Sequence record: OQ791282
DNA length: 47,865 nt
Source: Shigella phage Henu10
Strand: one strand, 5' to 3'
Shown here: piece by piece, positions 14,514-46,100 of the stretch
Layout of the letters: every line of letters begins with the position of its first letter
Position numbering within the stretch: the first letter of the stretch is position 1
Notes under the pieces: generated by a model
What the model saw: only the letters and a program-made list of their open reading frames with translations
Database searches by the model: none
What the model was told of the DNA's origin: nothing
Program-made: the position numbers and the translations under genes

Positions 14514-14621
14514 AGATAAATGGTTATTAGTTTTTTAGTATCTTTGTGTTACAAAACTACTTTAAGTAATAACTCCTTACAATAGGAAAACCAAATAAAT
14601 AGCGTTAAAAATTAAATTTCT

Positions 14622-14645
14622 GATTTTAAAAGCGTGTTTTAAAAT
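14622..14645. repeat. 25-bp dyad-symmetric motif, copy 2 (GATTTTAAAAGCGTGTTTTAAAAT)
   Basis: Same arms and core (opposite core orientation) as 6240..6264; abuts ATG 14646. Confidence 0.6.
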
Positions 14646-18171: not shown

Positions 18172-18263
18172 AATGATATATTAGTGATAATCACAAAATT
18201 AACTATACCAAAAACCGCTAACAATAGCAATAGGGGAGGATTTGGCAGAAAAACTAAATTTTC

Positions 18264-18284
18264 GATTTTAAAAGCGTGTTTTAT
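18264..18284. repeat. Dyad-symmetric motif, copy 3 (GATTTTAAAAGCGTGTTTTAT)
   Basis: Directly downstream of terL stop and about 90 bp upstream of portal start. Confidence 0.55.
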
Positions 18285-19583
18285 TTACAAAATACTCGCA
18301 ATCTGCTGTAAATCGTTTTGGATAGGTTCGTCAAGTTCTATAAAGCCGTAACGAAGAGCATCTATCAAGTGGTTATGTTTGTCAATAGGGATACCAGCTT
18401 TTTTATCGTTCCAAGCGTAATTGCGGAGTTCCTTTTTGAGGTTATGGCTATTCTCGGTTACAATAATTTGATATTCTAACATTTTTAAAATAGAGGCGGA
18501 CACGATGCCAGGCTTTTTCTTTGTTGGTTTTATGTTTAATCCTTTTTTACGCAAGTCCTCAATTAGTCGTGGCTCAGCACTATCGCCTACTATTAAATCA
18601 TTTTCTCGGTCTATAAGGCTTTTATTTAGCAGATACAAATCATCTGTTGAGAGTTGATTGTTTCCGTAATATTTCTCATCAGCATAGATAATTTTTCTTT
18701 TGTGGTCAATAGCTACCTTAACTAATGTATCTGGGTCTATGCTAAATCCGTAATCTTGACCATAGCAGTAAGGAATAGATGTGTCAAAGTCGCCTTCCTT
18801 CCAATTAGTAAAGATAACGCCCTCTGCCATATCAGACCACCTGCCTATGATTTTTTGAGCGTACTTGCTCTTATTGAATAGGGCTTGGTCTAATTTACCG
18901 TTTATAGTACACTGCTCTATACTTTCCTGTTTTATACGCTCTATATTAGACAAGAATTGTTCTGACAAGTTCTCTATGTTGTCTAAATAGGTCGTGTGGA
19001 TATGTAGGACATCGGGGTGGGTGCTTATCTGTACATCTACACCGTCAATCTGTACTATCTTATGGGTATTTTCAATATATTTTTTATAAATAAAATGGTC
19101 GGAGTCGGTAGGGTTGAGTATCAGTATAACTCTTAATTGTTTATTTTTCTGACGAATGGATAGGATTAACTTTTCGTAATCTTCCTCGTTTTCCCACTCT
19201 TCCATTTCATCGCCCACGAAGGTGGTTATCCCCTGTATGGATTTAAGGTTTGCTGTTTGGTTTCCTGACGAAGTTTTTATCCCTCTAAATAAAATACTAC
19301 TTCCTGAAAATTTATTTAGTATTTCATTGTTTGTTACTGTAAAATACTCCTGCACGCCCTCTTTTTCTATTTTTTCCTCAAACTCTGGAATGATAGAAAT
19401 ACGAGCGGAGGTCATCGTGTAACGGCTAAAGAGCATCTTATGCCCAGCTTCAAAAGATAATCGCTCTACAAAGGTAGTCGCATTATAGGATTTTGCAGAC
19501 CCTCTACCTCCAGTAAGGAGTATAATAAACTTGTCTTTGTTGGTGTAAAGAGGGTTATATACTTCTTGTGTTTTTATTGGCAT
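18285..19583 (-). CDS. terL: Terminase large subunit
   Basis: 432 aa; Walker A LLTGGRGSAKS near N-terminus; nuclease-type C-terminal half; follows small subunit. Confidence 0.8.
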   Translation of the reverse strand: MPIKTQEVYNPLYTNKDKFIILLTGGRGSAKSYNATTFVERLSFEAGHKMLFSRYTMTSARISIIPEFEEKIEKEGVQEYFTVTNNEILNKFSGSSILFRGIKTSSGNQTANLKSIQGITTFVGDEMEEWENEEDYEKLILSIRQKNKQLRVILILNPTDSDHFIYKKYIENTHKIVQIDGVDVQISTHPDVLHIHTTYLDNIENLSEQFLSNIERIKQESIEQCTINGKLDQALFNKSKYAQKIIGRWSDMAEGVIFTNWKEGDFDTSIPYCYGQDYGFSIDPDTLVKVAIDHKRKIIYADEKYYGNNQLSTDDLYLLNKSLIDRENDLIVGDSAEPRLIEDLRKKGLNIKPTKKKPGIVSASILKMLEYQIIVTENSHNLKKELRNYAWNDKKAGIPIDKHNHLIDALRYGFIELDEPIQNDLQQIASIL

Positions 19584-19677: not shown

Positions 19678-20160
19678 TTATTCTTTTTCTTGTTGATTGT
19701 TTATTTTGAGCCAGTCCGAAATGTTGATACTACCTTTTTGGTTCAGCTCTATATCTTGTCTGTCTCTCCACGCTTTAGGCTGTCTATTTTTCAACCAAAA
19801 TATTTGGGCTGATGTTTCAGGAGGATAATAGTCTTCTACCTCTACAACTTCTACTTTCTCTATCTGTCTATCGTGTTCGTCATATTGCTTTACTTTGATT
19901 GGTACTTGTCTTTTTTCCTTATGCCCCAAAGCTCTTTTATACAAAGTAGAAGCTACATTAGCATCAGCTTCTTCTTTTCCCTTTTTTATGGACTCTAAAA
20001 ATTCAGGGTGTTCGTTCTTCCAATTATTTAAAGTCCCTTCTGTAATCTCAAATAAATTAGCCATTTGAGCATCAGTAAGTCCAGCCAAACAATATTTTAA
20101 TGCTTGTGCAGGGTGATAATTAGCGTCATATTTCGTGGGTCTTCCTACTTTATTCTCCAT
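19678..20160 (-). CDS. Terminase small subunit, putative
   Basis: N-terminal GRPTKY... HTH region typical of small terminase DNA-binding domains; upstream of terL. Confidence 0.55.
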   Translation of the reverse strand: MENKVGRPTKYDANYHPAQALKYCLAGLTDAQMANLFEITEGTLNNWKNEHPEFLESIKKGKEEADANVASTLYKRALGHKEKRQVPIKVKQYDEHDRQIEKVEVVEVEDYYPPETSAQIFWLKNRQPKAWRDRQDIELNQKGSINISDWLKINNQQEKE

Positions 20161-20887
20161 TCTCTATTATTTCTGCAAATTCTTCTCCTTTTATGAACTT
20201 AGTATCTCCGCTTAAGTGAAATCGCTCTAAGAAAAACACTTTATTCTCATAGCTGTCAAAAGATAGGGTGATATAAGGGTCTCCCTCATAAACGGTTCCT
20301 TCCTTAACTTTCGCTTTAGCTTCTTTTACGGCTTGTTTTTTTTCCTCTTGTGAGGCTTCTTCTTCACTATCTTGTGTTTTAGCCTTTTCTTTCTTTTCTT
20401 CTTGAGGTTCAAAAGTAGGCACTTCAATATTTAGGTCTTTAGGTAGTTCTACCTCTATAAAAGAAAGGTCTATATCATCTAAACCTGCTAAATCTACATC
20501 AATATCAGGAACGATTAAAGCTAACTTTTGGTAGTCCATTTCTCCTTGTACGGACTTGGAGTTAAAGAATATGTTTAGCTCTTTCTCTGTCTTTAAATCT
20601 ACATTGATAACTTCTACTTTTATCTCGTAGTCGTTCTCTTTTGTAGAGGAATTATATTTATTTACTTCGTCAGCAATAGATAACTTTTGATGTCCCGATA
20701 CTAAATTTGTGGTTAATTCGTTCCATACCATTCCCCCTATAATGCCGTTTGCCTTGATGTTCTTTTTTAAGGCTTTTCTTGCTTCATCAGTTATCTTTCT
20801 TGGATTGTATGGAGCGGGCGTTATTTGGCTTCTTAGTATAGTTCTAGTTTCAGATTGCTTTATTTTGTTTTTCATAGTCATATTCAA
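20150..20887 (-). CDS. ParB-like nuclease domain protein
   Basis: N-terminal ITPAPYNPRKI...GHQKL resembles ParB/Srx N-terminal domain; acidic low-complexity C-terminal half; overlaps neighbours on both sides. Confidence 0.55.
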   Translation of the reverse strand: MNMTMKNKIKQSETRTILRSQITPAPYNPRKITDEARKALKKNIKANGIIGGMVWNELTTNLVSGHQKLSIADEVNKYNSSTKENDYEIKVEVINVDLKTEKELNIFFNSKSVQGEMDYQKLALIVPDIDVDLAGLDDIDLSFIEVELPKDLNIEVPTFEPQEEKKEKAKTQDSEEEASQEEKKQAVKEAKAKVKEGTVYEGDPYITLSFDSYENKVFFLERFHLSGDTKFIKGEEFAEIIENGE

Positions 20888-21554
20888 ATAAAATTCTTTC
20901 CGTGTCGGGAAACTCTTCTATAACTCTTTTTAAATCCCCTGGAGCGTTTGCCCTACACCATAAAAGAAAAGAAAGGTTTGTTACATCTGTTCCTTGCGAC
21001 CTTGTGTTTCCTACATTTCCATATTGTAATGGCTCTATAAGTCTTTTTTTACTTATAAACTGCAAAACTTCTTTATTAGACCACTTGGATAATGGGTATA
21101 CCTTTTGTGTCTCTTCGTTTATTATTTCGTTTTCATAGGTTCGCAACATCAACCTCCTGTTGAGGCTGTCGTTTTGCTTAAACCCATACACTGCCCATTG
21201 GATACCCGTTTCTTCCTTAATTTTTTCTGTAATTGTTGATAGGTTGTATTGTGCATAATTTACCTCATTAGTCCCGCAGATGCCTAATTTTTTATAATTG
21301 TAGTAGGCGTAATGTGGGGTTTGAATAAACGAGGCATTCTTATATCTTCTTTCAGCCCAAAGAATATATTTGTTTATATGCGAAAGGTCTTTGACCATAT
21401 ACATATACACACACTTTACCTCTTTGAAATAAGGGCTTAACATTTCAAGTAAAGCGATGCTATCTTTGCCATTGGCAGAATGAAAGAGTAAAACCCTGTC
21501 CGTTTTTTCAGACAAGGCTTTAATACTCTTCATTGTGTCGGCTAGCAGGTTCAT
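20850..21554 (-). CDS. PAPS reductase-like PP-loop protein
   Basis: LLFHSANGKDSIALLEML matches the PP-loop motif of the PAPS reductase family. Confidence 0.6.
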   Translation of the reverse strand: MNLLADTMKSIKALSEKTDRVLLFHSANGKDSIALLEMLSPYFKEVKCVYMYMVKDLSHINKYILWAERRYKNASFIQTPHYAYYNYKKLGICGTNEVNYAQYNLSTITEKIKEETGIQWAVYGFKQNDSLNRRLMLRTYENEIINEETQKVYPLSKWSNKEVLQFISKKRLIEPLQYGNVGNTRSQGTDVTNLSFLLWCRANAPGDLKRVIEEFPDTERILFEYDYEKQNKAI

Positions 21555-22185: not shown

Positions 22186-22372
22186 TTTTCTATTTTTTTT
22201 AATTGTTGTTTCATTCTTTCTATTAACTCAATGTGTTCTACTAACTTACCCCTTGTCTTTGTTTTGTACTTCTGTATGGCTTTTGCTTCAATCATTACTT
22301 TACAAAAGTAGTCTTAATCTATTATATTTCAAATATTAAAGCGTGTATAAATTCAAAAAAAATAAAGATTTT

Positions 22373-22396
22373 GATTTTAAAACACGCTTTTAAATT
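22373..22396. repeat. Dyad-symmetric motif, copy 4 (GATTTTAAAACACGCTTTTAAATT)
   Basis: Immediately downstream of the 22398..22712 stop; a degenerate half-copy at 22336..22352. Confidence 0.55.
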
Positions 22397-27816: not shown

Positions 27817-28062
27817 TTAAATTTTAGGCATATCTGGCACTGAATGCCAAAAAACAACATCTAAATCCTCCTCTAAATCTGCCTCTGTCATTATCTTGCC
27901 GTCTTTTGGGTATATTTCGCCGTTTGAAATTCCCCACAAATAACCGTCTTCAACATACGCTAAACAGCCTAACGCTACCCAACCTTTGCCATTCGTTATC
28001 CAAACAGTTTCATTTTCGTTTGGTAATTCTTCTTCTACTTTTTTCCAATTATTTGTTGTCAT
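27817..28062 (-). CDS. DUF551-like phage protein
   Basis: Short Trp-rich protein (WKKVEEELP...WITNGKGW) of DUF551 type. Confidence 0.4.
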   Translation of the reverse strand: MTTNNWKKVEEELPNENETVWITNGKGWVALGCLAYVEDGYLWGISNGEIYPKDGKIMTEADLEEDLDVVFWHSVPDMPKI

Positions 28063-28355
28063 ATATCTTTTACAAATTGTCCGTTAATCATTTTTCCTGT
28101 CCTTTTGCTTATTACATCGTATGCACTTTGTACGCAGTCTATAAAGTTCAGATTCTGCATCTCACATTGAATAATTAGCGTAACTACTATATCTCCTATT
28201 GCATCTTTTATTTCTGTTCCATCATCATCTGCAATAGCTGTGAGTAGTTCTGTACATTCTTCTAATGTTTTGAGTGCTTGTTTTGTGGGCGTTGCTTTAG
28301 CTAGTATTCCCTTGTCGTCAGCCCATTGTTTGATTTGTTTGATTAGTTTTTCCAT
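28059..28355 (-). CDS. MazG-like nucleotide pyrophosphohydrolase
   Basis: LKTLEECTELLTAIADDDGTEIKDAIGDIVVTLII matches the MazG helical EExxE/D motif region. Confidence 0.55.
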   Translation of the reverse strand: MEKLIKQIKQWADDKGILAKATPTKQALKTLEECTELLTAIADDDGTEIKDAIGDIVVTLIIQCEMQNLNFIDCVQSAYDVISKRTGKMINGQFVKDI

Positions 28356-28461
28356 AATTTTTACTTTTTGTCATTTCTAATTGATAAATAAAATACTGTA
28401 ACAATAGCTGCACAGCCAATTATATTCATTATTACTGCTTCTAAATTTTCTCCTATTTCAA

Positions 28462-28779
28462 TCATTGTTTATTGTTTTTTAAAAAATCGTAAAGTTCATC
28501 AGGTGTTTTCAGATGTATCTTTTTATTTTCGTGTAAAATACACAGTTGCTTATTTCCGAAATCTGTTTCCCAACAGAACCACCCTATGTAATCGTATTTA
28601 TCATTCATTTCTTCTTGTAGGATTTTCAGTAGCATATTAGATAAATAGTGATTTTTGGGCATTAAGTCGTTTTCACTTACATCAGTAAAAACCTTACTTA
28701 AATTTTCAGCTACTTCCTTATCGTATTCGTATTGTTTCTTTATAGCCTCAATGGCTTTTATAAATGTTTGTTTTTGCAT
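28462..28779 (-). CDS. Hypothetical protein
   Basis: 105-aa ORF. Confidence 0.4.
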   Translation of the reverse strand: MQKQTFIKAIEAIKKQYEYDKEVAENLSKVFTDVSENDLMPKNHYLSNMLLKILQEEMNDKYDYIGWFCWETDFGNKQLCILHENKKIHLKTPDELYDFLKNNKQ

Positions 28780-28943
28780 AGCTGTTGTTTTAATTGTTGT
28801 ATTTGGTTATCGTTGTCTATGATTTTTTTTCTAAGCTCCTTGTATTTCTCTAATACTTTCTTTTTATGCCCTTCATAAAGTTGTTTCATATACCGTAGCT
28901 CTTCTAGCTTTTCGCGTATTGCTTCTTTGTCCCTGGCATTCAA
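28758..28943 (-). CDS. Hypothetical coiled-coil protein
   Basis: 61-aa basic helical ORF. Confidence 0.3.
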   Translation of the reverse strand: MNARDKEAIREKLEELRYMKQLYEGHKKKVLEKYKELRKKIIDNDNQIQQLKQQLCKNKHL

Positions 28944-28999
28944 TTCTCTTAGGGTGGGGGGGTTATGTTTAGATAGTTCTGTATCATTTAATTATAGTT

Positions 29000-29812
29000 T
29001 TAAAAATTGCAAACACACTTGTTTTCTTCAAAGTTTAGCTCTCCTGTAAAAGGGAGCTTAGAAAGCTCTACTAAATCGTCAATACTTTTATGACCTCTAA
29101 AAGAGGTATTGCCATATTTCCCCTCCATTTTTCTATACCAGTCTATAAAACGAGTTCCCTTTCGGATAACATCTATTAGATTGGCGTCAGATTTTTTCCA
29201 ACATAGTTCGCAGTTTCCATACTTGTTGTGTATTTCCAACTTGAATGGCTGACTATCCCAAAATTTATTTAGTTCCATTTGTCCTATTGGAAATTGAAAA
29301 TCAGTCAAAAGTGGAAATATCCTTATTTTGTCTTCCTTGATTTCTGCCCAACTTATTCGCTTGGGCATATCTTCTTTACGAAATCCAATAGCTTTTAAGT
29401 AACTATTCACACCGAAAATATCATCTGCAATTTTTTTAGCAGGTAATGTTTTAAGCATTTCGCTACAAAAAGGGGCTTCAAGGTTGGGCATACCATTAAA
29501 TGCTCCTTTATTTTTGTGTGCAATAGCATTCTCAAATGGTTTAGCAGTCATATCTAAGTTATCCCAATCTACTAGCTTGTAACTAACCCCAACACCCATT
29601 TCTGATGAATATACGCCTTCAATTTTAACAAGTGGAATATTCCAATGCTTCTCTATATTTTTGAGAAAATCTATCGTCTCTGGTCGCTCCATTCCTGTAT
29701 TGCAGAAAACAAACAACTTATTGTAATCCTTATATTTTTCGGATACTTGGATATGTCGTGCCATCATAGCGGAACTTCTCCCTCCAGACACTGTTATTAT
29801 TAAATTTTTCAT
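29000..29812 (-). CDS. PP-loop ATPase (PAPS reductase-like) with C-terminal Cys cluster
   Basis: N-terminal IITVSGGRSSAMMARH PP-loop; C-terminal CELCW...C.C cysteines. Confidence 0.55.
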   Translation of the reverse strand: MKNLIITVSGGRSSAMMARHIQVSEKYKDYNKLFVFCNTGMERPETIDFLKNIEKHWNIPLVKIEGVYSSEMGVGVSYKLVDWDNLDMTAKPFENAIAHKNKGAFNGMPNLEAPFCSEMLKTLPAKKIADDIFGVNSYLKAIGFRKEDMPKRISWAEIKEDKIRIFPLLTDFQFPIGQMELNKFWDSQPFKLEIHNKYGNCELCWKKSDANLIDVIRKGTRFIDWYRKMEGKYGNTSFRGHKSIDDLVELSKLPFTGELNFEENKCVCNF

Positions 29813-29837
29813 AGTTTTTCTGGTAACACATTTTGCT

Positions 29838-30125
29838 TTATGAATTCACAATGATAGCTTCTACTCCTGCAACAGCTTCTGGTTTTAATTCCAAAAAGTC
29901 TGTGCCTATTTGGTTGGCTTTGTTTTTACATATTTCTGCTAAATCCTTGTTGATTTCGCAGAAAAGAACCTCCTTAGCTCCGTACTCTTTCAGATAATCT
30001 ATAATATTACCTTTTCCTGCACTTGGCTCTAAAATAGTTTTGTTATTTACATCTAACTCCATAAGGTCTAAAACCTCTCTAGGAGTAGGGTAAAAGTCTT
30101 GGTTGAATAGGTTTTGGTATTTCAT
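29838..30125 (-). CDS. SAM-dependent N6-adenine DNA methyltransferase-like N-terminal fragment
   Basis: FYPTPREVLDLM followed by ILEPSAGKGN resembles motif X and motif I of gamma-class amino-methyltransferases; ORF stops (…AIIVNS) before any NPPY-type catalytic motif. Confidence 0.4.
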   Translation of the reverse strand: MKYQNLFNQDFYPTPREVLDLMELDVNNKTILEPSAGKGNIIDYLKEYGAKEVLFCEINKDLAEICKNKANQIGTDFLELKPEAVAGVEAIIVNS

Positions 30126-30234
30126 TTTGCTTTTTTATTAGGATTATTTCTTCTCTTGGGCTTTTGCTCTAGGCTTTGCCCTCTTTTCAGAAAGACCACA
30201 GGTCTATTGAGTTTCTTGGCTTCTTCTAATACCT

Positions 30235-30558
30235 CTAAGGCTTTTCTTCGTTGCTCCTTGCTTCGTTGGAGTGTAATTCCTTCCATTCTTTGGTGTCTTT
30301 TATGGTTAGTATTTCTTTTGGGAATTTCTTTTGTTTTTCAAGCTCTACAAAGTTTTTCAGTTCTTCGCTAAAAACTGTTTTCTTTTTAGCTAACTCGGCA
30401 ATCATTTTGAGTGGGAGGGAGGGGGCTTTAACCTTGCAATCTCTGCTCTCAGTTGTATATTTTCTATCGAAAGCCGTTTTATCATCGTGAATAAGTCTTT
30501 GGTTTGGTAATTCACTTGTTCTGATATTTGCTGTATTTGCTGTATTCCTTTGTACCAT
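30235..30558 (-). CDS. Hypothetical protein (overlaps 30402..30803 in another frame)
   Basis: ORF track only. Confidence 0.25.
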   Translation of the reverse strand: MVQRNTANTANIRTSELPNQRLIHDDKTAFDRKYTTESRDCKVKAPSLPLKMIAELAKKKTVFSEELKNFVELEKQKKFPKEILTIKDTKEWKELHSNEARSNEEKP

Positions 30559-30803
30559 TTTGTTTTTTTTAGTTTTTCTAATCCTTTAAGACCTTCTTCT
30601 GGACTTAAAGGGTGTTTTTGTAACACTTTCAAATCACATTCAGAGAGGTATTTATGAGACCAATCTGTAATGAATCTTATTTTATCACTCATCAACTTCT
30701 GATAATGAACATCTGTTACACTTTCTGTTTTTGCGTTGGCGTCCATTACAAAGTTTATGAACGCTTCTTTCACTTCGTCAGAAAGGCATCTCGTCTGTTT
30801 CAT
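30402..30803 (-). CDS. Hypothetical protein
   Basis: 133-aa ORF immediately downstream of helicase gene. Confidence 0.35.
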   Translation of the reverse strand: MKQTRCLSDEVKEAFINFVMDANAKTESVTDVHYQKLMSDKIRFITDWSHKYLSECDLKVLQKHPLSPEEGLKGLEKLKKTKWYKGIQQIQQISEQVNYQTKDLFTMIKRLSIENIQLRAEIARLKPPPSHSK

Positions 30804-31833
30804 AATTTATTGTATTAAATGCTTCACTTGGAGTGGTTCTAAATTCTTCTATTTTAAACTCTTGATTGGGTCTTCTGTCCTTGAACTTTGTGCATTGTGC
30901 AAACTGCACTTTGTCGTCAAACATCTCATAATATCGTCTGCTTCTCCAATCGTAGTAAATGGAGTAAATCCCCCATTTAGCAACCCCTTCAGGCTTAATT
31001 TTCAGGATATGTATATTTGTCTGATTTTCGGCTACATACTCCTCGTCTCCCTCTGGGTTTTCGTTTGGCTCTGGTCTATGGACTAAAATTTGCAACATCG
31101 CTTTTCTGTTGTTATTTTTTCCTCCATAGAACTCGTCAGCTAAAGCTGTGAGTTTTATTCTCTTTCCGCTTTTGGTTGTTACTTTAGCCGTCTCCGCCAC
31201 ATGGTTCACTATGATGTCGAACCTGTTATTTTCCTCTGCTTCTAAATTTATTCTGTTCAATACTCTAAGCACCTCACTCGCTTTAGGCTCAAAGTCGTCT
31301 ATATCGTAAATGGGGTCTATCACAAGGCAGTCAAACTTTATCCCATAATTAGCCTCCGCCATTGCTAACTCTTTGTAGATGTTATCTAGCTTCTGATAGG
31401 AGGTATCTTTTCTATCTTGCTTGAAAATATACAAGTGTCTTAAAATAAACTCTTCTGCCTCTGCTACTTCCTCATCTGTCATAGCGTACTTGTTGGGCTT
31501 TCCATCTGGTCTGACTTTAGTGTATGGCTTACCTTGATACATTCCGCAAAACTGCGTGAAAACTTTCTCTACATCTCCGCTTTCTGTGGTAAATAAAGCC
31601 ACTTTGAAATGGTGCTTTTCAATAAGCTGCATTACCATTTCGTTAGTTACTTGTGATTTACCGTGATTGGGTTCGCCACCTATTAGCAAAGTACATTTCC
31701 TGCTTCCCATTAACCATTTTCCATTGTTAAAGTCATTCCAAGTTTCAAACGAAAAATAGACTGGGTCTATCTCTCCCTTTGTGCGGAGTTTTCGCATCTG
31801 TGAATGAACCGAAGCTAAGTCTATAAACGCCAT
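30778..31833 (-). CDS. DnaB-like / RecA-fold replicative ATPase-helicase
   Basis: Walker A LLIGGEPNHGKSQ and Walker B FDCLVIDPIYDIDD. Confidence 0.6.
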   Translation of the reverse strand: MAFIDLASVHSQMRKLRTKGEIDPVYFSFETWNDFNNGKWLMGSRKCTLLIGGEPNHGKSQVTNEMVMQLIEKHHFKVALFTTESGDVEKVFTQFCGMYQGKPYTKVRPDGKPNKYAMTDEEVAEAEEFILRHLYIFKQDRKDTSYQKLDNIYKELAMAEANYGIKFDCLVIDPIYDIDDFEPKASEVLRVLNRINLEAEENNRFDIIVNHVAETAKVTTKSGKRIKLTALADEFYGGKNNNRKAMLQILVHRPEPNENPEGDEEYVAENQTNIHILKIKPEGVAKWGIYSIYYDWRSRRYYEMFDDKVQFAQCTKFKDRRPNQEFKIEEFRTTPSEAFNTINYETDEMPF

Positions 31834-31845
31834 AATTCTAATTTT

Positions 31846-32622
31846 TTAAACGCTCCAAATTCCGTAAGTCTTCTTCTTTTCTGTGGCTTTTTGAGAGGTT
31901 GTATTTTTGTACTTGTCTAGGGTTACGGGACGGCTAAAAAATTCAGGTGTTAGGTATTTATAGCCTTGTTCCATATGGTATTTGTCCTTTACCGCATTTT
32001 CGATAGCCTCCAGTATATCCTCTTTTGTGTAGCCTTCTTTCAATCTAGCCTTGTACTTTCTCTTTATTTGGTCGTTTATCGTTTTAAACTTGCGTTTTGT
32101 TTTGTCGCTTATGAAGTTTAATAGCTTTTCAAAGTCTATATCGTTATTGGGCTTCGCTTTTCCCTCTTCTTCCAAATCCGAAAGAGACCCTTTTGGTTCT
32201 TTTTCTAAAAGAACATTTAGTTTAGTTTTATTTAGTTTATTGTTAGTATCAGAAACTGTATCAAGAACCGTATCAGAAACCGTGTCAATATCTGTATCAG
32301 AAACTGTATCAAGAACCGTGTCAGCTGTTGATACAGTTGGAAAAACATATTTAGTTTGTCCGTCTATTCCCTTGCTTCTTTTTTGCGGTGTTTTAAAGTC
32401 AATAAGTCCTAATTGCATCAATCTATTTCTAGCATCTCTAACAGTATTAACTGACATTCCAAGTGCGATACTTAAATGTCTGTCGGAATGCCCAAAGGGT
32501 TGCTTCCAGCCCAACGAATTACAAGTATGCAACAGATAGAAGTATAATCTTGTGTCGTTAGGGCTGATGCAACGCTCTAAGTTGCATTGCCAAAATTTGT
32601 TTATGAGAACTATATAATTCAT
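31846..32622 (-). CDS. Replication initiation protein (N-terminal HTH, repeat linker, conserved phage C-terminal domain)
   Basis: Peptide repeats DTVLDTVSDTDIDTVSDTVLDTVSDT encoded by iteron-like DNA repeats; C-terminal region resembles conserved phage replication-protein C-terminal domains. Confidence 0.5.
   Translation of the reverse strand: MNYIVLINKFWQCNLERCISPNDTRLYFYLLHTCNSLGWKQPFGHSDRHLSIALGMSVNTVRDARNRLMQLGLIDFKTPQKRSKGIDGQTKYVFPTVSTADTVLDTVSDTDIDTVSDTVLDTVSDTNNKLNKTKLNVLLEKEPKGSLSDLEEEGKAKPNNDIDFEKLLNFISDKTKRKFKTINDQIKRKYKARLKEGYTKEDILEAIENAVKDKYHMEQGYKYLTPEFFSRPVTLDKYKNTTSQKATEKKKTYGIWSV
32246..32336. repeat. Iteron-like direct repeats (putative origin) inside replication gene
   Basis: GTATCAGAAACTGTATCAAGAACCGT at 32246..32271 and 32294..32319, plus further GTATCA-type units and an inverted TGATAC. 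Confidence 0.5.
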
Positions 32623-43113: not shown

Positions 43114-46100
43114 TTATGAATAATTTGTTATTATACCTTTTCTAATGGTAAGCCATACTCCCCCCAAAAATAATTCTCCTGTATATCCTACCTCTCCACC
43201 CACACGAATATCTCCCGATTCTATATTTAAGGCAGTAGCATACTGTCCGTCAGCCCTTATAGATAGGGCGTTGTAGGGCGTATAATTGTTCACATCACGC
43301 CCCCAGAGCCGAAGTATATTGTTTTTATTTCCGTTTAAAATACTATCATCATTATTGATGAGAGCATAGCTTTCTCTCCCAGATGAAAGACTTTTTTTAT
43401 ATGAAAGTATGCTTCCAGATGACTTTATTTCTAAATAGTCGTTTGGGTCTGCTATTCCTTGCCCCGAAAGTGTATTTCCGCTAATATTGAACCTTGCTAT
43501 TTTACCACCTGTAATTTCCATATCAGAGCCATAAACTTTCCCATTATCCAGCACCCTAAATGGTGCATTATGTTTATTGGCGTAGTTCGCTCCTGCTCCA
43601 AATCTCACGCTCATTGCTCCCTCGTCGGTAATACCACTAATAAAAGCGTTTTGATTAGCTTGGTTGCTTCCGACTGACATCAAGTTAGCCATCATCAACC
43701 CGCCTTGAATAGAAGTGAAGTTGTCGGTCTTGGTCTTCACATCAGCCAAAGAGGTTTGCATATTAGCTATTCCTTGTTGAAGGTTGGCAAATAGTGCGTC
43801 CAAGTCTTCGGGGGCGGGTGTCCAATCGGTTGCTTTATTGCCTTTTTCAAGTTTTACATCTTTAAACCAAACTGTATTGTTGCTAAACGCTCTGAGTATA
43901 AAGATGAAATAGGCTGTGTCAGGCTGTGTCCTTATTGTGAAGTTCACATATTTATATTCTGAATTAACAGGGAACTCCCTGTAATTATCAGAATAAACAG
44001 TCGTATGAGTGCCGTTCTCTTTCATTTCTAATGCGTAGAAAAAAGCTGAACCTATCCCCTTAACAAAGGCTGATATTGTATATTCTGTGTTTTTCTCACA
44101 TTTTATATTTTGGTCTATTTGATTGTAAACTTGTCCATCTATCGAGGTTATTTTAACGCTCCTTTCATTAGGTAGAAACTCTGCTTGTGGATACCCTTTG
44201 CTCCAATGCTCTCCACCGTTTTTAAATTCAGTATTGCGAGCTAGGTTTCGACCACCAACAATTACTCCATTGATAGCATTATTAAGTTGAGATGTTGTTG
44301 CACCTCCACCATTACTCACTATTGCCGAAGCGTTTAGTAACTCTGTTTTGATATAGCCTCCCTGCACAATTGTGTTGCCGAGCATTGCTCTTTCTACGGA
44401 GTTCTGCCACGCCATTGTGCCGAGATTATTAAATTTGCTAGTAACCTCGTTTCTATGAGTATTTACCAACGCTTGAGCGTGTGCCTTAGCTTCTTCTAAC
44501 TTCGCCTTAGCTTCATTTATTCTCGCTTGTTCTTCGGCGGTCACTATACTATCTGCGTGAGCCTCTGCTTGCAACCTCGCCAAATTAGCTTTAGCTTCCG
44601 CCACAGCAATAGCTGATTGTTCAGCCTTATCAGCTTTTCCATCTGCGTAGGCTTTTATTAGCGTTTCCTTTAAGTTATCTTGTGCCTGTGCATACTCTTT
44701 AGCTAATTGCAGTTTCTGCTGGGCATCTGCAATCGCTCGTTGTTCTTCTTTGCTAACCTTTCCGTCAGCGTACGCTTCCGCCTGCGTCTTGGCTAAATTA
44801 GCCTGTGCCTGTGCGTAAGCATTAGAGGCTTGTGTTGCCTGTTGCTCGGCTCTTGTAATATCTGATTGTATATCTTCAGGAGCAGGTGTCCAATCAGTAG
44901 CTTTATTTCCTTTTTCTAACTTCCAATTTCTGTGGTAAATTTTTGCAGTTGCAGGAACACTTCCGTCATTATTCCATATCGCATATATGCCCATAAAACG
45001 AGTGTTGTTATATGGAGAATTTTCTATCTTCGTCCAAACATTCGCAGGACAAAATTTTCTATTATTCTCCCCAAAACCTATATACATATCGTGAGTGGGC
45101 TTTACTTCCATTGATTGGATAGTTTCCTGCCCTGTGAGGTCTTCCGTGAAAACACTTATATTATTGAGTAAATGAAAATAGGTAGAAATATAAAAATTAC
45201 CATTATTCACACTTGTTCCAGAAATCCATTTCACTCCATTTTCCTCTCCCTGTGTTAAGTCCCATGTTCTTCCGTTGTTGTTGAACATTCCGTATCCTTT
45301 TTGAGAACCCCTAAGGTAATTTCTACCTCCTACACTTACCGCATCCACCGCTTGTTGTATAGCACTCCCAACTTCCGCATAACCATTACCGCTTTTGAAC
45401 TTAATCGTTCCTGCTATTTCCCCACTATCCAAATCAAAATAGGTTTGTCCGTTGAGCGATTTAATTCTCCCTGCTGTTATTTGCCCTCCGTGCATAAATA
45501 CATTACCGTACATTGCTTCTGCTTCTCGTTTACTGTCTTTTGGTGTGTAGAGTAAGTAACACAAGAAGTAATAATAATCTGACCGACTATCAAACCTTAT
45601 CTGCTCGGTGGTGATATACCACATCGCATTACTACTTCCTCTTGAACATTTCGCATAAACGTAATAAACCTGATTCAATAAATCATTACGGCTGTATGGT
45701 AGTAAATTCCACTCTCTAATATCGTCTTCTAAAGAAAAATGAACCAACTTCCCACCACTAATAAATGTTCTTGCAGGATTACCCTCTATATTAGGATTCA
45801 GACTTATATTTTCTAATGCAAATTGTTGGCTCTTTGCTCCAACCGAAAGCATATTGGCTTCTATACTCTCTGGCTTGATATGTGTAGAGTCAAAGTAACC
45901 CTCTACATCAAAGACACTTTCTCGAAGCTCTTGCAGGTTACGATAACCGTTCAAGTAATTTCGTCGGTTAATTTGTTCCTGCGTTTTTATAACCGTTTTA
46001 GTATCTTTAATATCGGTAAGCAGACTTGCTACAAAGCTGATTTCGTAAGTGTCCGCAATGCCTATTTTGTAATTATATTCATCTAATAAGTCCCTCGTAA

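Follow-up and report, generated by a model that had tools for sequence, protein, structure and literature searches.

Organization of the locus

The window (the whole stretch of DNA that was analysed, 47,865 nt, record OQ791282) carries two adjacent ORFs between positions 29000 and 30125, a short one with methyltransferase motifs and a longer one that codes for a PP-loop protein. When the 28000-32000 segment was compared by megablast, 21 phage records matched, nine at 100% identity, and all but one of the 21 were Riemerella anatipestifer siphophages of the RAP44 group. Judged by these matches, the window is a RAP44-like R. anatipestifer siphophage. Both ORFs sit in a leftward early operon that also contains genes for a DnaB-like helicase and a MazG-like pyrophosphatase and, further on, NinB/Orf-type and NinG-type genes. 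The elements of the locus are:

29000..29812, minus strand: intact NinC-family PP-loop gene, 270 aa (PF01507, phrog_424, BLASTP with lambda NinC)
29813..29837, minus strand: 25-nt "spacer" between the two ORFs (ORF list)
29813..29843, minus strand: 31-nt remnant of the methyltransferase 3′ end, best aligned over 29815-29840 (local alignment)
29838-29840, minus strand: new stop codon of the stub, within the 31-nt remnant
29838..30125, minus strand: 95-aa ORF, MKYQNLFNQDFYPTPREVLDLM...ILEPSAGKGN...AIIVNS* (ORF list)
29843..29844, minus strand: deletion junction, AAT-TCA-TAA (N-S-stop), where the N94 codon (AAT) meets the gene's 3′ end out of frame
29844..30125, minus strand: surviving 5′ part of the methyltransferase gene, codons 1-94 (tblastn and nucleotide alignments)
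30122..30286, minus strand: 54-aa ORF upstream of the truncated methyltransferase, its stop and the ATG of the latter overlapping in ATGA (ORF list and sequence)

The 54-aa ORF belongs to the part of the operon that was kept in all locus types, as judged by alignment. Since the ATG of the stub overlaps its stop codon, the remnant is probably still translated by coupling to this upstream ORF. The gap between the stub and the PP-loop gene, which a first-pass annotation of the sequence had given as 26 bp, is 25 nt long. In CRP6, PJO17 and PJA1 the extra DNA found 3′ of the locus contains tRNA-like T-arm sequences, in which ARAGORN called no tRNA.

The 95-residue ORF carries the N-terminal motifs of a DNA methyltransferase

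Four methyltransferase motifs were located within codons 1-94:

30060-30095, minus strand: motif X, FYPTPREVLDLM, residues 11-22
30006-30035, minus strand: motif I, ILEPSAGKGN, residues 31-40
29949-29963, minus strand: motif II/III-like FCEIN
29889-29903, minus strand: motif II/III-like TDFLE

Motifs X and I had already been read from the sequence in the first-pass annotation, and the comparison with relatives bears them out: the D-F-Y-P-T-P of motif X is invariant in 20 relatives of the ORF, the E-P-S-A-G-K-G of motif I is likewise invariant among the relatives, and the latter forms a beta1-loop-alphaA element in the structural model. The SAM-contacting motifs of the stub are all kept (motif I, the II-like E57 and the III-like D76). 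Profile searches of both ORFs had been proposed. With the 95-aa ORF, methyltransferase profiles were matched: phrog_31814 with an E value of 4e-65, phrog_799/6263 ("DNA methyltransferase") at 1e-10 to 1e-11, and the PADLOC MTase_II model at 1e-8. The ORF also covers the first 96 of the 480 positions of phrog_32703 (E 4e-42). Pfam gave sub-threshold matches only (Methyltransf_25, E 0.018).

The same annotation had noted that the ORF stops at ...AIIVNS, with no NPPY-type motif downstream, and this is correct for the coding strand. A six-frame search with the expression [NDS]PP[YFW] found no match on the minus strand downstream of the ORF, and the few matches elsewhere in the window are in antisense frames. 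The catalytic motif IV is therefore absent: the ORF ends with N94-S95-stop, at the point where intact alleles carry MNPPF at positions 93-97. When the intact CRP6 protein described below was used as a tblastn query against the 47.9-kb window, residues 1-94 only were found (95.7% identity); nothing was recovered past residue 94, that is, neither motifs V-VIII nor DUF4942. A split gene, with the missing half encoded elsewhere in the window and complementing in trans, was rejected on the same search. An AF2 model of the stub contains only beta1-beta4 and two helices of the class I methyltransferase fold, or four of its seven strands. With neither a catalytic loop nor a target-recognition domain, the product would be incapable of DNA methylation.

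The intact gene is present in sister phages

An intact 464-aa gene occupies the same locus in CRP6, PJN03, CRP5 and one IMG/VR contig (UViG), where the protein reads ...AGVEAIIMNPPFSEF.... The first 94 residues of the CRP6/PJN03 protein are 96% identical to the window ORF, after which it continues as ...AGVEAIIMNPPFSEFRKHF...; CRP5 carries a 90%-identical allele, and the UViG a 93%-identical one. In the 282 nt that can be compared, the window differs from CRP6, CRP5 and the UViG at 12-14 positions. DUF4942, which is presumed to be the target-recognition domain, was detected at residues 263-457 of the intact protein (E 2.5e-23).

The closest kin of the stub are thus the DUF4942 phage DNA methyltransferases (phrog_32703; CRP6 WIL01331.1, Tenacibaculum phage Larrie, Leeuwenhoekiella phage Arctus_1). 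It shares 96-97% identity over residues 1-94 with the CRP6, CRP5 and UViG proteins, has motif X (FYPTP) and motif I (ILEPSAGKGN) in common with them, and occupies the corresponding place in the genome, behind the same upstream genes. It differs from them in having no motif IV (NPPF), no remaining catalytic domain and no DUF4942 at all, which leaves a 20% stub. The full-length architecture was also found, at 97-99% coverage, in Tenacibaculum, Leeuwenhoekiella, Fusobacterium and Bacillus phages, and, of 18 wider relatives, 17 read (M/A)NPPF at the column after the last residue conserved in the window. This distribution indicates that the 95-aa form derives from an ancestral long form.

Both ends of the methyltransferase gene survive at the locus

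Nucleotide identity with the intact alleles is ∼96% from the upstream gene through codon N94, and ends abruptly, exactly before the NPPF codons. The break reads ...ATGAAT|CCGCCGTTT in CRP6 versus ...GTGAAT|TCATAAAG in the window, and in the intact alleles the NPPF codons come next.

The spacer was then compared with the final 31 nt of the UViG allele, which is intact (window, TAAAGCAAAATGTGTTACCAGAAAAA; UViG, TAAAG-GAAATGTGTTACCAGAAAAA). The two agree at 24 of 26 nt, with a local score of 21; 2000 shuffles gave a mean score of 10.2 and a maximum of 17, and the best match of this type elsewhere in the window scored 13-14. The match was also seen with CRP5 and CRP6, and is colinear with the 3′ end of the gene. 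In its old frame the 31-nt remnant reads ..NVLPEKL* (..NVLPEKI* in the intact alleles), and its TGA overlaps the ATG of the PP-loop gene. Since the spacer corresponds to the last ∼30 nt of the intact gene, the ORF is best read as an internal deletion allele in which both gene ends survive, the loss of ∼1.08 kb (about 1,080 nt) having shifted the frame. The lost length is not a multiple of three, and hence N94 is followed by a serine and a stop codon. The alternative held out in the first-pass annotation, a decayed methyltransferase, is right, and can be specified as this allele of a 464-aa gamma-class NPPF methyltransferase with DUF4942 that is intact in sister phages.

Two other origins of this segment were considered. 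A simple cassette swap was dropped, because the spacer is the methyltransferase gene's own 3′ end. The 3′ end of the X170 gene, an unrelated 170-aa gene that occupies the position in other sister phages, was rejected as well, since it gave only a 10-nt match whose score, 10, is no more than the shuffle mean.

The junction is identical in all five carriers that were aligned (the window, RAP44, PJO17, GDF21 and the prophage contig L024), which points to a single deletion event at the origin of the truncated form. By tblastn, 13 phage records contain residues 1-94 only.

The PP-loop gene belongs to the lambda NinC family

The following features were assigned to the 270-aa protein and, for context only, to another PP-loop gene of the window:

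29771-29788, minus strand: PP-loop SGGRSS, residues 9-14, family-invariant motif
29465-29467, minus strand: C116, family-invariant cysteine
29201-29212, minus strand: C201 and C204 in GNCELCWKKS, family-invariant cysteines
29009-29017, minus strand: C266 and C268, conserved cysteines
20850..21554, minus strand: first PAPS_reduct/PP-loop gene of the window (Pfam E 8e-9; phrog_424 E 5e-20)

The 270-aa gene is indeed the second PP-loop gene of the window, as had been noted. The first one and a ParB-like gene (20150-20887) form a pair next to the small terminase (CRP34 annotation), and pairwise BLASTP detected no similarity between the two PP-loop proteins (E 1.9).

The 270-aa protein matched PF01507 (PAPS_reduct) with 27.7 bits, above the cut-off of 22.5 (E 3e-6), and phrog_424 with an E value of 1e-41. 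BLASTP aligned it with lambda NinC over residues 5-212 at 31% identity (E 5e-28). To genes annotated as NinC in Chi-like Salmonella phages, and as ninC-like in a Pseudomonas phage, identity is 32-35% at 86-93% coverage; further matches were found in Stx-converting phages. Lambda NinC itself matches the same PHROGs (phrog_424/33262). Residues S9, G10, G11, S14, C116, G199-N200-C201, C204, K206-K207 and C266 are invariant in the members from Bacteroidota, lambda, Chi, Klebsiella and Pseudomonas phages, and C268 is invariant in 49 close homologues. The conserved cysteines of the protein, of which the first reading had noted a C-terminal cluster, stand at positions 116, 201, 204, 266 and 268.

The protein resembles lambda NinC (orf-290) in the SGG(R/Q)(S/T)S PP-loop, the F/Y-C-(S/T) and GNCxxCxKKS motifs and a C-terminal cysteine, and both genes have NinB/Orf, NinG and MazG-type genes around them in an early "nin-like" region. 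It differs in belonging to a Bacteroidota-phage branch, whose members are 66-92% identical to one another, and in having a C-terminal CxC instead of CxxSC. These relationships place it in the lambda NinC family rather than with CysH. Its earlier description as PAPS-reductase-like holds at the level of the Pfam domain and fails as a specific family assignment. With CysH (PAPS/APS reductase) the protein shares the clan-level PF01507 domain and the generic PP-loop alpha/beta fold; its C-terminus is KCVCNF, and not the ECGLH that constitutes the CysH catalytic motif. Neither the cysH nor the APS_reductase model of NCBIfam matched it, and the only matches in that collection were of 17-20 bits to PP-loop models of archaeal hypothetical proteins, whose cut-offs are 366-745 bits.

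The AF2 model of the protein (pLDDT 88) shows a generic PP-loop ATP-pyrophosphatase fold. In a Foldseek search of the PDB the best E value was 3e-3, with TM scores of 0.38-0.44 (0.39-0.44 for 6vpu and 2goy); CysH/APS reductase ranked alongside [4Fe-4S] LarE, TtuA, TilS and GMP synthase, so that these are matches at the superfamily level only. A sequence search of the PDB gave spurious matches only. By analogy with such enzymes, the NinC-like protein would adenylate its substrate at a metal or Fe-S site.

A likeness to the DndC/SspD/BrxP group of phosphorothioation proteins was weak and partial. The SspD HMM matched the PP-loop region over positions 3-98 of 277 (E 2.8e-8), which spans only a third of the model, and the BrxP HMM gave an E value of 0.002. 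Neither a DndD/SspC/BrxC-type NTPase nor a cysteine desulfurase was found among the annotated neighbours.

Lambda NinC, a non-essential protein, is described as "poorly understood" (PMC10695390, PMC3224144), so the family name gives no mechanism. No paper in the literature search linked NinC to a function, and the paper on a RAP44-like phage mentions neither the methyltransferase nor the PAPS reductase.

The PP-loop gene stands without the methyltransferase fragment

The first-pass annotation had also offered the possibility that the short ORF is a SAM-binding module working with the PP-loop enzyme. Ten loci with PP-loop homologues of 70-92% identity, from Riemerella and Capnocytophaga genomes and from metagenomes, carry no methyltransferase fragment within 5-6 kb, and this reading is consequently not supported by the gene neighbourhoods; the PP-loop gene does not need such a partner. 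In the sister phages PJA1, GRNRAP2 and CRP19 the same PP-loop gene is preceded by the X170 gene, an unrelated orphan gene for a 170-aa Cys-rich product that also ends in CTATGA. Among the best 150 of 1369 50%-cluster representatives (E≤1e-3), almost all homologues are stand-alone proteins of 250-350 aa.

Origin and fate of the stub

It is very probable that the 95-aa ORF is a pseudogene remnant of a deleted 464-aa methyltransferase, beside an intact NinC-like gene that acts independently of it. The ancestor would have carried a complete gamma-class N6-adenine-type methyltransferase of 464 aa, with motifs X-I-II-III-IV(NPPF) followed by DUF4942, whose stop codon presumably overlapped the start of the NinC-like PP-loop gene (...CTATGA). 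A single deletion of ∼1.08 kb would then have taken out codon 95 to about codon 452, from NPPF to just before the last ∼10 codons, and the resulting frame shift would stop translation two codons past N94, leaving the first four strands of the SAM-binding fold. The downstream NinC-like gene would have stayed intact, its product working alone as a PP-loop ATP-pyrophosphatase with a metal or Fe-S site of 4-5 cysteines.

An order of genes with the intact methyltransferase directly before NinC was absent from the phage, IMG/VR, genome and metagenome collections searched. Phage tblastn, scans of genomes and IMG/VR and scans with the exact junction pattern returned only the deleted form (L024) or forms with the methyltransferase alone. 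The absence of this intermediate is in line with a second path, in which no intact methyltransferase ever stood beside NinC and one illegitimate recombination joined a methyltransferase-only locus of the CRP6 type to an X170+NinC locus of the PJA1 type. The three locus types are found together in one phage population, with flanks that are swapped freely. Nonetheless, we consider this path unlikely. The methyltransferase 3′ end is still there, directly against the NinC ATG and in the translationally coupled arrangement (..NVLPEKL*, CTATGA), and a two-parent crossover at N94 would not carry that end along, so that at least two junctions would be needed. By the deletion and by the recombination path alike, the ORF is a non-functional remnant.

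Could the remnant have been co-opted, as a module that binds or sequesters SAM, as a partner of the NinC-like protein, or as a translated leader that drives the downstream gene? The stub ORF is open in every carrier (about 13 records), its ATG overlaps the upstream stop, the SAM-contacting residues listed above are kept, and fusions and adjacency of methyltransferases with NinC are known elsewhere. In addition, the window and GDF21 fragments differ by 12 synonymous and 3 non-synonymous codons, a ratio that, read literally, suggests purifying selection. The sites that vary, however, form a mosaic shared with the full-length alleles, and the GDF21 variants at codons 66-68 are present in the intact UViG allele; because of this patchwork, the synonymous excess can be accounted for by import through recombination with functional genes. 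The changes private to the window and RAP44 fragments are 3 non-synonymous and 2 synonymous. Two changes adjacent to the junction, M93V and a silent one in codon 92, occur in all fragments and in no intact allele, and position 93 is a methionine in all but one of the NPPF-bearing relatives.

Other observations speak against co-option. The modelled stub has only four of the seven class I strands, the stub is missing beside NinC homologues of 70-92% identity, and sister phages hold the unrelated 170-aa gene where the stub stands. The form that ends before NPPF was found only in this phage clade (window-type, GDF21-type and P0121). The homologue search with the 95-aa query gave short proteins only. 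Judged by their sequences, these are for the most part pieces cut by a contig end or a frameshift in which NPPF is still present; the short hits outside the clade carry NPPF, lie on short contigs or are frameshifted, and so look like broken genes, and the list shows no family of small stand-alone proteins. A retained function of the stub, by co-option in any of the three forms, is very unlikely.

That a sequencing or assembly error produced the truncation, or that frameshifting, splicing or an intein restores the gene, has practically no chance of being right. Nothing but the abrupt stop at the catalytic motif speaks for it, whereas genomes that several laboratories sequenced independently share the junction, as do prophage contigs, and the missing 1.08 kb of coding sequence is absent from the genome.

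We conclude that the pair consists of a pseudogene stub and an ordinary intact NinC-family gene, a case of ordinary phage gene decay and not a new two-part enzyme. In one phage population the slot was found in four states: i) an intact N6A methyltransferase, ii) the N6A methyltransferase plus a C5 methyltransferase, iii) the 170-aa gene X plus NinC, and iv) the deleted methyltransferase plus NinC. The locus thereby offers a clean, dated case of the decay and exchange of phage accessory genes. GenBank, RefSeq and PHROGs label the 95-aa product "DNA methyltransferase", which is misleading, and phrog_31814 is built from the stub. For RAP44-like therapeutic phage candidates, the stub should not be counted in inferences about the methylome or anti-restriction.

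Methyltransferase-NinC associations in other phages

The search for fused methyltransferase-PP-loop architectures that had been suggested was positive elsewhere: Dam-NinC fusions do exist in other phages, with complete Dam domains rather than the remnant present in the window. In P0323, one protein contains Dam (PF05869, residues 9-173) followed by NinC, and in gp18 of Vibrio phage 44E38.1 the fused domains stand in the opposite order, NinC and then Dam. In Salmonella phage Oslo, dam overlaps ninC by 4 nt, between ninB and ninD. The window resembles these fusions and dam-ninC neighbours of lambdoid and Vibrio phages in that an N6-adenine methyltransferase lies upstream of, or is fused to, a NinC-family domain. 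It differs in that their Dam (PF05869) is complete and of another family, whereas the window has a dead stub of the DUF4942 type. A C5 methyltransferase lies 4 nt upstream of a NinC-like gene in a Capnocytophaga prophage, and in CRP5 the slot that NinC occupies in the window, downstream of the intact DUF4942 methyltransferase, holds a C5 methyltransferase. No methyltransferase adjoins NinC in the Chi, Klebsiella and Pseudomonas phages.

The recurrent association may reflect a functional link, and may just as well come from nothing more than a common slot for accessory genes, where the overlap of stop and start codons makes fusions easy. We tentatively raise the possibility, doubtful as it is at present, that NinC-family PP-loop enzymes are tied to the methylation or modification of phage DNA, acting on DNA or on the methylation pathway. 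Its comparative basis is the Rosetta-stone fusions with Dam in both domain orders, together with translationally coupled methyltransferase-to-NinC pairs from three unrelated families (Dam, C5 and the DUF4942 N6A type, the last being ancestral to the window). Since the methyltransferase of the window is dead, any such link would not be operating there. Fusion and coupling offer a testable lead on the function of lambda NinC, to which the window adds little. If the tie were true, the window would represent a lineage that dropped the methyltransferase partner and kept NinC, a conceptual parallel to BREX type 4, in which the place of the adenine methyltransferase is taken by a protein with a PAPS-reductase domain (PMC12914056).

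Neighbours and fusions of NinC-family genes

Fusion proteins joining Dam and NinC were found in both domain orders, and in unrelated phages a Dam or C5 methyltransferase gene is followed by a NinC gene, with the stop and start codons overlapping or nearly so. For the uncharacterised NinC family, these fusions and pairs represent a possible functional link to DNA methylation enzymes. The fusions and pairs are as follows:

P0323, protein with Dam (PF05869, residues 9-173) followed by NinC
L028:2519-3958, comparison locus
L029:1992-3388, comparison locus
L005:4860-6822, comparison locus

In the related phages PJA1, GRNRAP2 and CRP19, the slot 5′ of the NinC-like gene is occupied by another gene (L014:2900-3412, L015:3164-3676 and L016:2596-3108), whose stop codon overlaps the ATG of the NinC-like gene. 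Its 170-aa product, an orphan with CxxC...CxxC motifs, had no match in Pfam or PHROG.

The 95-aa methyltransferase stub that fills this slot in the window carries the RefSeq/GenBank names 'DNA methyltransferase' or 'class I SAM-dependent methyltransferase' (RefSeq entry YP_007003654.1, RAP44 gp58). Its alignment with the 95-position PHROG family phrog_31814, annotated 'DNA methyltransferase', covers the full length (positions 1-95 of 95), and hence this family appears to have been built from the deletion remnant.

Downstream of the NinC-like gene

The gene 3′ of the NinC-like gene begins with ATGATACAG..., a start common to RAP44, PJA1 and the UViG contig that has the intact methyltransferase allele. 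Two features of the window are relevant here:

28985-28987, ATG of this downstream gene
28956-28962, homopolymer run, poly-G on the plus strand and poly-C on the coding strand

The run is C7 in the window and C8 in RAP44, so that the frame shifts after 10 codons, and all that remains of the gene in the window is an ORF of 61 aa that starts at an internal TTG (28758..28943). The difference could reflect a genuine length variant of the homopolymer or an error in sequencing.

In CRP6, PJO17 and PJA1, additional DNA 3′ of the locus, which the window lacks, carries two tRNA-like T-arm/acceptor segments (GGTTCGAGTCC...; comparison loci L002, ~4450-4990, and L013, ~1240-1600). ARAGORN called no tRNA in this DNA, and hence the segments may be relics of an att site or of a tRNA fragment.

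Other features of the window

The first PAPS_reduct-type PP-loop gene and its ParB-like partner (20150-21554) are directly adjoined by the small terminase subunit gene. The ParB-like protein gives a hit to the N-terminal portion of a type II methyltransferase model from PADLOC.

Repeats were detected at the following positions:

6195-6261, 14577-14643, 18219-18285 and 22328-22394, 67-nt intergenic element
1-253 and 44002-44254, 253-nt direct repeat, 97% identity
43804-44103 and 47541-47840, 300-nt direct repeat, 94% identity

The four intergenic copies share 67-76% identity, end in ...GATTTTAAAA(C/G)(A/C)(C/G)G(C/T)(T/G)TTTAAA, and could act as a common promoter, operator or terminator. The direct repeats connect both ends of the window and lie within or near two very long ORFs on the minus strand (1967..6148 and 43114..47472); their origin could lie in paralogous segments of tail proteins, or else the record may wrap around or contain a duplication.
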